Source: Escherichia coli (GTDB lineage Bacteria; Pseudomonadota; Gammaproteobacteria; Enterobacterales; Enterobacteriaceae). From it: DNA of 64,000 nucleotides. Of this stretch, positions 21,701 through 24,700 are shown one piece after another. A program made the position numbers. Numbering within the stretch: the stretch's first letter is position 1; every line of letters begins with the position of its first letter. The stretch lies in NCBI RefSeq assembly GCF_024223415.1, contig NZ_CP100500.1; one strand, written 5' to 3'.

Positions 21701-24700
21701 GAGAGTCTCATCAAAAAAAAGTTGCAGGATGAAAACACCTGTTTCAGTAAAATATTACTCGCCTCCAGGATGTCGATGGCCAGACGATTACTCGAGTTAC
21801 GTCAAATTCCTCTGCATACTATTGCGGAAAAATGTGGCTATAGCAGTACGTCGTACTTTATAAACACATTTCGACAATATTATGGTGTAACGCCACATCA
21901 GTTTGCGCAACATTCGCCAGGTACCTTTTCCTGACATATTTTGCATTTGAATATTGGTCAGGATCTCACACCTGCTTCATGTGAAACTCTTCCCTGATGA
22001 TTTCTGCCGGGCTACCGGCTAGTTCTCTTTCGCAGTTTGCCAGGCGGTATAGGTATTTTCAGGAGGAAAAGACTCGGCATGTTTGGGATTATTAAGCTGA
22101 CAATTCATACGATTACGGGAATGTGGGTCAGTATTGTGCTGTTCAAATTGATGACGAATGGCTGGAGTGGTTTCTACTTTCAGTGCTGTGTACTAAGCCT
22201 GGTATTCCTGACGGTTAGCTGGTTGTTGAGTGGTGAATGGTTAGCAGGAAAGAGTAAGGCTGAACCTTCACGTTCAACCTTACTCTCATTTACACGTTAC
22301 GCTTTTTTAAAGCGGGCAAAGAGATGTTCCACTACAACGAAAAAGACCGGAACAAAGTAAATTGCCAGCACTGTTGCGGCAAACATCCCGCCCATCACGC
22401 CGGTACCTACCGCGTTTTGCGCGCCAGAACCGGCACCATGACTGATAACCAGCGGCAGCACGCCGAGAATAAAGGCCAGAGAGGTCATCAGGATTGGGCG
22501 TAAACGCATCCGCGCCGCTTCGATGATTGCCTCTATCGGCGTTTTCCCTTCTTTCTGCATCATCTCAACGGCAAATTCGACAATCAGGATGGCGTTCTTG
22601 GCGGAAAGCCCGATGGTGGTCAGCAAACCAACCTGGAAGTAGACGTCATTACTTAAGCCGCGCAGATCGGTGGCCAGTAATGCGCCAACGACGCCTAACG
22701 GAACAACCAACATCACCGAGAACGGAATTGACCAGCTCTCATAAAGTGCGGCGAGGGCGAGGAACACCACGACCAGTGAAATCGCATACAGCGCAGGAGC
22801 CTGATTTGAGGATAACGCTTCCTGATACGACAGTCCGGTCCATGAGTAGCCGACGCCTGCCGGAAGTTTAGCGACCAGGTCTGCCATAAATTTCATGGCG
22901 TCACCGGTACTTTTCCCGGCCGCCGCTTCACCTAAAATCTCCATTGACGGGATGCCGTTGTAGCGTTCCAGTCGCGGTGAACCATAGGTCCATTCGGTAG
23001 ACGAGTAGGCAGAAAGCGGTGCCATCGTGCCAGAGGCGTTGCGTACATACCATTGGTTGATGTTATCCGGCAACATACGGAACGGCGTGCCTGCCTGGAC
23101 ATACACTTTTTTCACCCGCCCCTGGTTGAGGAAGTCGTTCACGTAGCTGCTGCCGAAGGCGGTGGAAATTGTCTGGTTGATATCAGACAGCGCCACACCC
23201 ATTGCCTCAGCTTTCGCGGCGTTGACGTTCACTTTGAACATCGGCGTATCTTCCAGGCCGTTCGGGCGTACCCCGGTGACCTGATTCGGTGCTTGCGCTG
23301 CCAGTGATAACAGCTCGTTTCGTGCCTGGGTTAGTTTTTCGTGCCCCAGGTTACCGTTGTCTAGCAGTTCCATATCAAAACCTGACGCGGTACCCAGTTC
23401 AGCCACCGCGGGTAAGTTGAACGGGAAGACGACGGCTTTATTGATACTGCTTAGCGCAATCATTGCCCGCTGAATGATCGCGGTAACCGAGTTTTCCTCA
23501 CCGACACGTTCAGACCACGGCTTGAGACTGATAAACGCCAGACCGTTGTTTTGCCCCTGGCCGCTGAAGCCAAAGCCGCCAACGGTAAACACCGACTGAA
23601 CATTATCTTTCTCTTTTGTAAGATAATAATCCGTCACCTGTTGCAGCACTTTCGTGGTGTTAACCATGGTGGCACCGGAAGGTAACTGCGCGGTGGTCAT
23701 AAATACCCCCTGATCCTCTTCTGGTAAGAAAGAGGTCGGCGTGCGCAGGAACAGCACCGCCATCCCGGCGCAAATCAGCAGGTAGATCACCATGTAGCGA
23801 CCGGTACAACGCAACAGTGAGCGGGTGCTATCGGTATAGTGCTGAGTTGATTTTTCAAACAGCGTGTTGAAGCGTGCGAACAGGGCATTAGGTTTGTGAC
23901 CGCCTTCCGGCGCGGCTTTCAGAATGGTGGCGCACAGGGCAGGGGTCAGGCTCATTGCCACAAATACTGAAAGCAGCATGGAGGAGATCAGCGTGATGGA
24001 GAACTGGCGGTAGATCTCCCCGGTTGCACCGCTCATAAAGGCCATCGGCATAAACACTGCGGAAAGAACAACGGCAATACCGACCAGCGCACGTTGGATC
24101 TGCCCCATCGATTTATGCGTCGCTTCCTTCGGCGGTAGCTTATCTTCCGCAATGACACGCTCGACGTTCTCCACCACTACGATGGCGTCATCCACCAGTA
24201 ACCCTATCGCCAGCACCATCCCGAACATAGTTAACGTGTTGATGGTGAAACCGACCGCCGACAAGATCGCAAACGTCCCGAGAATAACCACCGGTACGGC
24301 AATCGTCGGGATGATTGTGGCACGGAAATTCTGCAAAAACAGATACATGACCAGGAAGACGAGGATGATAGCCTCAACCAGTGTTTTGAAAACTTCCTGA
24401 ATAGAAATTTCGATAAACGGCGTGGTGTCGTAAGGATAAACCGTCTTCAGACTTGCCGGGAAATAGGCTGATAAGCGGTTCAGTTCCTCTTTGACTGCCC
24501 GCGAGGTATCCAGGGCGTTTGCTCCGGTAGCCAGTTTGATGGCGATCCCGGCAGCAGGTTTGCCGTTATAGCGCGCCACGGTGGAATAATCTTCCGCCCC
24601 AAGTTCGACGCGGGCGACATCACGCAGCAGCACTTGCGAACCATCTTGCTGAACTTTCAACAGGATTTTGCCAAATTCTTCCGGCGTTTGCAGACGCGTC

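Follow-up and report, generated by a model that had tools for sequence, protein, structure and literature searches.

Does the spacer between the convergent Escherichia coli genes gadW and mdtF encode a protein of its own? The question concerns a 64,000-nucleotide (nt) stretch of E. coli DNA (NCBI RefSeq assembly GCF_024223415.1, contig NZ_CP100500.1), which we call the window and number from its first letter, and it was raised by a reading made from the DNA letters alone, hereafter the sequence-only reading. That reading pointed, at the gadW-mdtF junction, to a 93-codon open reading frame (ORF), here the small ORF, as a candidate gene for a small membrane protein, and kept as a fallback that it could be a spurious ORF in AT-rich DNA; a frame interrupted in most related genomes, or a lack of ribosome footprints or of expression from a fusion, was to count against a gene. 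We conclude that the small ORF is very probably a selected protein-coding gene, whose product is a genuine, genus-restricted and acid-induced small protein of the inner membrane; our confidence in any specific protein partner is much lower.

The window represents the acid fitness island of E. coli in its O157:H7-type form. Several O157:H7 chromosomes match the 521-nt stretch around the small ORF at 100% identity, and a search of 5,426 complete E. coli genomes found this stretch in 5,414 of them. The ribosome-binding site (RBS) AGGAGG, the ATG and the 93-codon frame all lie where the sequence-only reading had placed them. The two hydrophobic segments that it described are also found (19-residue Kyte-Doolittle windows above 1.6 at residues 4-22 and 31-56), as is the overlap with the 3' end of mdtF on the opposite strand. 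This overlap is tail-to-tail and measures 64 nt, covering codons 73-93 and the stop codon of the small ORF, and in it, by the computed phase, the third codon positions of one gene fall on those of the other. The length of the ORF alone is weak evidence for a gene: over its six frames the window holds 81 ATG-initiated ORFs of at least 93 codons, and 1.4% of the shuffles of positions 21935-22360 (426 nt) give an ATG-initiated ORF that long. The small ORF stands above chance because of its conservation pattern and of the published data on its translation.

The small ORF is already known from the literature, where it has been published twice (2017, 2023). In K-12 MG1655 it is sORF15 of Schumacher et al. 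(2023, mSystems 8:e01037-23; PMC10746267), listed in their Table S7 as NC_000913.3:3663464-3663745(-) with the sequence MFGIIKLTIH...KKTGTK; in our alignment of the window with K-12, positions 22079-22360 map exactly onto NC_000913.3 complement(3663464..3663745). In O157:H7 Sakai it corresponds to XECs371 of Hücker et al. (2017, PLoS One 12:e0184119; PMC5597208), located at 4405602-4405955 on the minus strand and called as a protein of 118 amino acids (aa), its start being placed further upstream at a codon other than ATG (MPGYRLVLFRSLPGG...). All 93 aa of the window protein are included in XECs371, and position, strand, frame and sequence all match the two published candidates. The sORF15 product and the window protein are identical at 92 of 93 residues, with R65 in the window and C65 in K-12; besides the R65C codon, the DNA differs by three synonymous changes, at 22139, 22339 and 22354. 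Both ORFs have the same RBS, two predicted transmembrane helices and a location in the 3' untranslated region (UTR) of gadW. The sequence-only reading had called the ORF unannotated. This is correct for RefSeq, since the MG1655 record and one O157:H7 record of the NCBI Prokaryotic Genome Annotation Pipeline have no feature annotated between gadW and mdtF, and incorrect for the literature. Some submitter annotations (GenBank, UniProt) list the exact protein as 'hypothetical protein', and it is seen on at least 1,000 contigs.

Translation of this ORF has been observed in both strains. Schumacher et al., who placed sORF15 in a long gadW 3' UTR, compared pH 4.4 with pH 7.6 and found a log2 fold change of +4.21 by ribosome profiling (Ribo-seq; adjusted p 1e-38) and of +4.03 for RNA, that is, an induction of about 16-fold at both the RNA and the footprint level without significant change in translation efficiency; at pH 4.4 the Ribo-seq log2 fold change of GadW was +3.03 (PMC10746267). 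They also detected by western blot the product of a pBAD24-sORF15:3xFLAG construct keeping 15 nt of the native leader, and modelled the protein with two DeepTMHMM helices and, by AlphaFold, a possible third helix (PMC10746267). In Sakai, RNA and footprint levels of XECs371, in reads per kilobase per million mapped reads (RPKM), were 19.7 and 23.4 in lysogeny broth (LB) and 32.4 and 48.8 in brain heart infusion (BHI); the ribosome coverage value (RCV), which is footprint RPKM divided by RNA RPKM, was 1.21 in LB and 1.51 in BHI, and the protein was predicted to be an inner-membrane protein with 2 transmembrane helices (PMC5597208). Footprints in K-12 and in O157:H7 Sakai, together with the FLAG fusion, thus contradict the idea of a frame without footprint or fusion expression. 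The small-ORF sequence is absent from the EDL933 study PMC4765031, and a literature search by the name sORF15 returned no later E. coli study.

With regard to the start codon, the extension that XECs371 carries upstream of the window ORF is without an RBS, its open length differs among species, and its frame is shifted by an 11-nt deletion in Escherichia sp. MOD1-EC7003. Comparison of the sequences supports the ATG at 22079, rather than the upstream start of XECs371, as the start of the gene.

To follow the small ORF beyond E. coli, we carried out a scan anchored on GadW over one genome per GTDB species (100,044 species genomes). It returned six loci, all from Escherichia: two E. coli-like lineages, 'E. 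coli E69' (GadW 90% identical), Escherichia sp. E1V33 (79%), E. whittamii (78%) and E. albertii (75%). These six loci, K-12 and the window (O157) make up our comparison of eight sequences. In all eight, the small ORF has 93 codons and not a single insertion or deletion (indel) between 22079 and 22360, and the AGGAGG, its 12-nt spacing and the ATG are unchanged. The stretch 22055-22081 is variable at 4 of its 27 sites and has no gaps, whereas the 120 nt of intergenic DNA between the gadW stop codon and the RBS hold 13 gap columns and are variable at 53 of 109 sites (49%). The small protein of O157 is 83-89% identical to those of the three most divergent species (E. albertii, E. whittamii and E1V33), which exceeds the identity of GadW.

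Within E. coli, at least 80% of the ORF is found at 95% identity or more in 5,412 of the 5,426 complete genomes, and when full-length matches were sampled evenly down the ranking, 24 of 24 span exactly 282 nt. Far from being interrupted in most related genomes, the frame is intact in all eight Escherichia lineages. The three substitutions that separate the ORF of B2 strains from that of O157 are all synonymous. About 5,430 matching places were counted in E. coli genomes, one of them on a plasmid-typed record, and a few genomes have two. In E. coli SW070912 (NZ_CM129860.1), an IS3-family transposase (2814-4042) lies between gadW and mdtF, inside the small ORF after about codon 41. This insertion is the only genuine disruption of the ORF that we saw, and it makes SW070912 a natural knockout strain.

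A first protein alignment gave the impression that many genomes carry a frameshift in the C-terminal third. We rejected this, as the variants are single-base gains or losses in homopolymers (A3, T6, A5). A variant with a deleted A sits on differing haplotypes in read-assembled contigs, Logan contigs among them; GCA_019583425.1 carries three homopolymer deletions and has a truncated mdtF too; and a 42-nt probe discriminating a 76-aa allele has 0 matches in the 5,426 complete genomes. Judging from these sequences, the apparent frameshift alleles are assembly errors, which inflate the apparent diversity of the protein clusters.

Outside the genus, our searches returned no relative. A word-indexed search of 5.8 billion proteins returned near-identical copies only, the best named ones all from Escherichia or Shigella; with phmmer, a search of 1.84 billion representatives yielded nothing but fragments of the same locus, the weakest matches being frameshifted or chimeric. 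No family in Pfam-A or NCBIfam matches the small protein at E <= 10, and a search of the PDB with a profile of the orthologues gave no sequence at E <= 1. By these sequence searches, the small protein is an orphan restricted to the acid fitness island of Escherichia and Shigella. Near-identical 'homologues' at 80-100% identity have been reported from Staphylococcus epidermidis, Klebsiella, Vibrio, Salmonella and Enterococcus (PMC10746267, PMC5597208), those above 80% identity in Vibrio, Klebsiella, Salmonella and Enterococcus being claimed by Schumacher et al. (PMC10746267). Such values are suspect because GadW drops to 75% already within the genus and because no diverged homologue was found; the reported sequences most likely come from mislabelled or contaminated assemblies.

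We then examined whether the codons carry the mark of selection on a protein, using the pairwise ratio of nonsynonymous to synonymous substitution rates (dN/dS) calculated according to Nei and Gojobori (NG86). Against the three most divergent species, dN/dS is 0.05-0.14 for codons 1-57 and 0.07-0.13 for codons 1-72, which lie outside the mdtF overlap; these values are comparable to those of gadW (0.05-0.11). When codons 1-57 were analysed in all six frames as a control, dN/dS was lowest (0.11) in the proposed frame, which alone is free of stop codons. It was 0.18 in the mirror frame, where the wobble positions are shared and 12 stop codons had to be skipped, and 0.75-3.7 in the remaining frames; between 11 and 33 stop codons have to be skipped in the five non-proposed frames. 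In comparison with E. albertii, 23 of 33 substitutions are synonymous, against a chance expectation of about 21% (binomial p 2e-9, and 5e-5 if this expectation is set generously at 35%). In addition, variable sites fall on codon positions 1, 2 and 3 in the numbers 17, 10 and 34 (chi-square p 5.6e-4). Within the mdtF overlap, all 6 variable sites are at the shared third position, and dN is 0 for both genes. Independent selection at the protein level is thus shown only for codons 1-57, the two-helix core, by the pattern of substitutions. The check across Escherichia genomes that the sequence-only reading had proposed has accordingly come out in favour of its candidate: the frame is kept and dN/dS is around 0.1, and this adds to the Ribo-seq of two studies and to the FLAG western blot.

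A separate observation is that the synonymous divergence (dS) from E. albertii is very uneven along this region: about 3.3, hence saturated, for gadW, about 0.8 for the small ORF and about 0.6 for the 3' end of mdtF (22300-22899). It suggests different histories (recombination) or different regimes of mutation and selection on the two sides of the junction.

The last third of the ORF has to be read in another way. A hairpin of 16 base pairs starts 10 nt after the mdtF stop codon and lies within codons 58-70. Folded as RNA of the mdtF strand it reaches -27.3 kcal/mol (z -6.2), as against -18.7 kcal/mol for the plus strand, that of the ORF, on which C·A or A·C mismatches take the place of two G·U pairs. 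Over nine genomes, 98.6% of the cells are paired; one compensatory change, U-A to C-G, is seen in E1V33, and two one-sided changes keep a standard pair on the mdtF strand. As a covariation signal, the single compensatory pair was not significant in a shuffle control (106 of 500). The stem is followed by TTTCC, a weak U-tract, and no Term-seq 3' end is listed there (Adams et al. 2021). From its sequence and position, the hairpin is probably the terminator or a 3' stabiliser of mdtF. The stem arms encode the conserved residues of codons 58-70, and the loop encodes the variable residues 63-65. The conservation of codons 58-93 is confounded because the hairpin and the coding sequence of mdtF constrain the same bases; the sequence of the tail would thus be largely dictated by the mdtF hairpin and the mdtF 3' end, and not be selected for itself.

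The protein has 93 residues, a mass of 10.5 kDa and a pI of about 10.3. Much of both hydrophobic helices is invariant among orthologues, including an FYF.CC motif in the second one (F32, Y33, F34, C36 and C37 invariant in 10 orthologues). AlphaFold2, run with ten orthologues, predicts helices at residues 2-26, 31-58 and 65-88, the third with low confidence. The TNGWSG turn between the two hydrophobic helices contains no charged residue. We infer that both ends of the protein face the cytoplasm, the basic tail lying on that side of the membrane and the TNGWSG turn in the periplasm, because the uncharged turn and the 11 lysines and arginines of the tail follow the positive-inside rule.

How would such an ORF be expressed? 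A scan for consensus sites found no sigma-70-like promoter on the plus strand between 21700 and 22600, and on this basis (consensus scan only) we rejected a promoter of its own for the small ORF. We also rejected a strong terminator for gadW. The terminator-like element after this gene is a weak GC hairpin (about -10 kcal/mol, z -1.5, not significant). It is not conserved: Escherichia sp. MOD1-EC7003 lacks part of it, and in other species indels of 1 nt change it. This fits a leaky stop permitting read-through. Adams et al. (2021, eLife, Supplementary file 2) give no curated Term-seq 3' end for either gadW or mdtF at their junction, and report an 'orphan' region of Rho-dependent termination on the gadW strand, with its peak at K-12 3663625(-), a score of 2.57 and p 2.9e-5 in LB at an optical density of 0.5. 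Upstream and downstream coverage was 100 and 25 without the Rho inhibitor bicyclomycin (BCM), and 415 and 267 with it (Adams et al. 2021). The equivalent of this peak falls inside the small ORF, at a position that is approximate since the region was mapped with 800-nt windows. As no promoter of its own is seen, the hairpin after gadW is weak and the ORF lies within the gadW 3' UTR, a read-through transcript of gadW most likely carries the small ORF.

These elements can be combined in the following model. Transcripts of gadW, or of gadXW, would run past the weak post-gadW hairpin into the small ORF. Rho would trim them when the region is poorly translated, and strong induction of the gad regulon would yield transcripts that include the ORF. 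The model matches the published induction because RNA and footprints rise in parallel, 16-fold, at pH 4.4. Being translated from gadW or gadXW transcripts, the small ORF would therefore be a member of the GadX/GadW/RpoS acid-stress programme. Its product would insert in the inner membrane as a helical hairpin with both ends cytoplasmic and, by analogy with other small membrane proteins, would most likely bind and modulate a larger membrane protein during severe acid stress. Candidate partners are the adjacent resistance-nodulation-division (RND) pump MdtEF and the antiporter of glutamate and gamma-aminobutyric acid, GadC. One can go further and picture a genus-specific accessory factor of MdtEF-TolC or of GadC, delivered by the GadW regulon in severe acid stress and encoded by a young gene, with a selected core that originated in intergenic DNA and a tail overprinted on the terminator of mdtF and on the antisense strand of the mdtF 3' end; its translation might in addition gate Rho termination and so set the amount of antisense transcription into mdtF. 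In this full form we regard the proposal as improbable.

The position of the Rho region leads to another explanation, in which the function lies in translating the ORF and not in its protein. Ribosomes would shield the 3' region of gadW from Rho and so control read-through antisense to mdtF, coupling gadW expression to the fate of mdtF mRNA or to the stability of gadW mRNA. The arrangement of the locus would suit such a device: the genes converge, the ORF crosses the mdtF hairpin and 64 nt of mdtF, no strong intrinsic terminator or curated Term-seq 3' end is found after gadW, and the Rho-dependent region peaks at 22199, inside the ORF. However, a device that needs only ribosome occupancy has no need for the amino-acid selection observed on codons 1-57 (dN/dS about 0.1, with invariant NGWSG and CC), the coarse mapping leaves the place of the Rho region imprecise, and the antisense effect on mdtF is hypothetical. 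We consider this explanation unlikely as a replacement for a functional protein, with which it is compatible; both could hold together.

A weaker explanation is that the ORF is translated to no purpose, as one instance of pervasive translation in a 3' UTR, and owes its conservation to the mdtF terminator, the mdtF coding sequence and elements of the gadW 3' UTR. Codons 58-93, constrained by the hairpin and mdtF, would behave in this way, and the lack of any homologue found outside the genus and of any known domain would be expected. Footprints alone do not imply function either: the neighbouring sORF14 and XECs372 have footprints and are yet not conserved. But codons 1-57 overlap no known element and nevertheless show the third-position bias and the low dN/dS described above, and the ORF has gathered no indel across the genus while the flanking non-coding DNA has, so that we hold this explanation to be very unlikely. 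Finally, a chance ORF that is not a gene, the fallback of the sequence-only reading, is made extremely unlikely by footprints in two strains, a tagged product, and a conserved RBS and ATG with an intact frame and low dN/dS across the genus, and this despite the many ORFs of such length in the six-frame translation of the window, a codon position 2 with 34% T, which favours hydrophobic residues, and the absence of a call by the RefSeq pipelines; nor is the region especially AT-rich, the GC content being 42.7% in the small ORF and 42.4% in gadW.

Several points weigh against the reading that we prefer, a selected gene for an acid-induced inner-membrane protein. The 12 nt between the last G of AGGAGG and the A of the ATG are longer than optimal, as the sequence-only reading had remarked in calling the spacing rather long. 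The dN/dS values come from eight lineages only, by pairwise comparisons that share branches and with the simple NG86 method, and codons 58-93 are without independent evidence of selection at the protein level, the hairpin covering codons 58-70 and mdtF codons 73-93. The AlphaFold2 model is of moderate confidence (mean predicted local distance difference test score 65). With a Rho region inside or near the ORF in LB, much transcription may stop before the end of the ORF at neutral pH, and the supplement of Stringer et al. (2021), a mapping of start codons at neutral pH, does not contain the ORF. The product seen in the FLAG western blot came from an arabinose-induced plasmid (PMC10746267), and our literature search found no report of the protein at native level (chromosomal tag, mass spectrometry), of a phenotype or of a binding partner. 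As for the partner, MdtEF and GadC are named purely from the location of the gene and from the suggestion of Schumacher et al.

Two shorter ORFs of this junction were considered as conserved companions. The first is sORF14 (13 aa, GTG start; Schumacher et al. 2023, PMC10746267), which overlaps the weak post-gadW hairpin; in the eight Escherichia sequences its start is GTA in one lineage, its stop is lost in most, and its length varies from 6 to 33 aa. The second is the equivalent of XECs372, for which an RCV of 2.6-2.7 was reported (Hücker et al. 2017, PMC5597208), a 32-aa ATG ORF which overlaps, in another frame, the RBS and the start of the 93-aa ORF; 4 of 8 lineages lack its ATG, and by this comparison it is unlikely to be a gene. 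We rejected both as companions, their start, stop and frame not being conserved across species.

The features of the locus are collected in Table 1. Scanned with Rfam at gathering score, the small ORF itself contains no match, and GadY is the only one nearby. Further away in the window, matches were obtained for the small RNA (sRNA) ES205, the thermoregulator of the shuA/chuA 5' UTR and the antisense RNA AgrB, which fit an acid fitness island of the O157 type with the chu haem-uptake insertion.

Table 1. Features at and around the gadW-mdtF junction, in window coordinates
Feature	Position	Strand	Remarks
gadX	20014-20838	+	Local gene order
GadY sRNA	20850-20963	-	Rfam
gadW	21206-21934	+	Annotated as gadW in K-12 and O157; directly upstream of the small ORF
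sORF14	21981-22022	+	
Equivalent of XECs372	21997-22095	+	
Weak GC hairpin after gadW, terminator-like	22004-22021	+	Inside sORF14; pattern scan
Ribosome-binding site AGGAGG	22061-22066	+	Read from the sequence
Small-protein coding sequence, stop codon included	22079-22360	+	ATG at 22079; 93 sense codons; TAA at 22358-22360
First hydrophobic (predicted transmembrane) helix, codons 3-25	22085-22153	+	Kyte-Doolittle 1.68 at residues 4-22; AlphaFold2 helix 2-26
TNGWSG turn, codons 26-31	22154-22171	+	T26, N27, G28, W29, S30 and G31 invariant in 10 orthologues
Second hydrophobic helix, codons 32-52	22172-22234	+	Kyte-Doolittle up to 1.95; AlphaFold2 helix 31-58
Peak of the Rho-dependent termination region	22199	+	Equivalent of K-12 3663625(-); inside the small ORF
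Basic tail, codons 53-93	22235-22357	+	11 K+R, 2 D+E; spans the mdtF hairpin and the mdtF 3' end
16-bp hairpin	22250-22287	-	Within codons 58-70; starts 10 nt after the mdtF stop
mdtF	22297-25410	-	Converges with gadW; gadW-mdtF spacer of 362 nt
mdtF 3' end overlapped in antisense	22297-22360	-	Stop, last 20 codons and third base of the preceding codon
ES205 sRNA	26742-26813	-	Rfam; between mdtE and the gadE region
shuA/chuA 5' UTR thermoregulator	36486-36517	+	Rfam
AgrB antisense RNA	46726-46809	-	Rfam

The acid fitness island is among the best-studied stress loci of E. coli, and yet the reference annotation is without this conserved, acid-induced membrane protein. With purifying selection shown across the genus, sORF15/XECs371 is no longer just a footprint-based candidate but a gene meriting a name, annotation and a knockout study. 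Lying between a regulator gene (gadW) and a pump gene (mdtF), it lends itself to direct tests of a role in acid resistance or in efflux.

Small membrane-protein regulators are known in E. coli, as in the pairs AcrZ-AcrB and MgtS-MgtA. With the AcrZ type, the window protein shares that it is a small, hydrophobic, stress-induced protein of the inner membrane encoded beside, or co-regulated with, a transporter; indeed, the small ORF immediately adjoins the RND pump gene mdtF. It differs in its architecture, since regulators of the AcrZ type have a single helix and about 50 aa or fewer, whereas the window protein has two helices and a basic tail of 41 residues in its 93 aa. In addition, BLASTP with a provisional sequence of AcrZ (about 49 aa) gave no alignment at E <= 100. 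The window protein is not a member of the AcrZ family, and AcrZ serves here only as an analogy for a possible mode of action.

Another comparison is with the antisense-overlapping genes of enterohaemorrhagic E. coli (pop/ompA, asa, laoB). These too are described as coding sequences partly antisense to an annotated gene, young and genus-restricted; in the gene described here, only the last 21 codons overlap mdtF and the selected codons 1-57 are intergenic. In relation to sORF15 and XECs371 as published, what is new here is the purifying selection across the genus, the limits of the selected core, a tail that appears to be shaped by the mdtF hairpin and by mdtF, and the correction of the cross-genus homologues.

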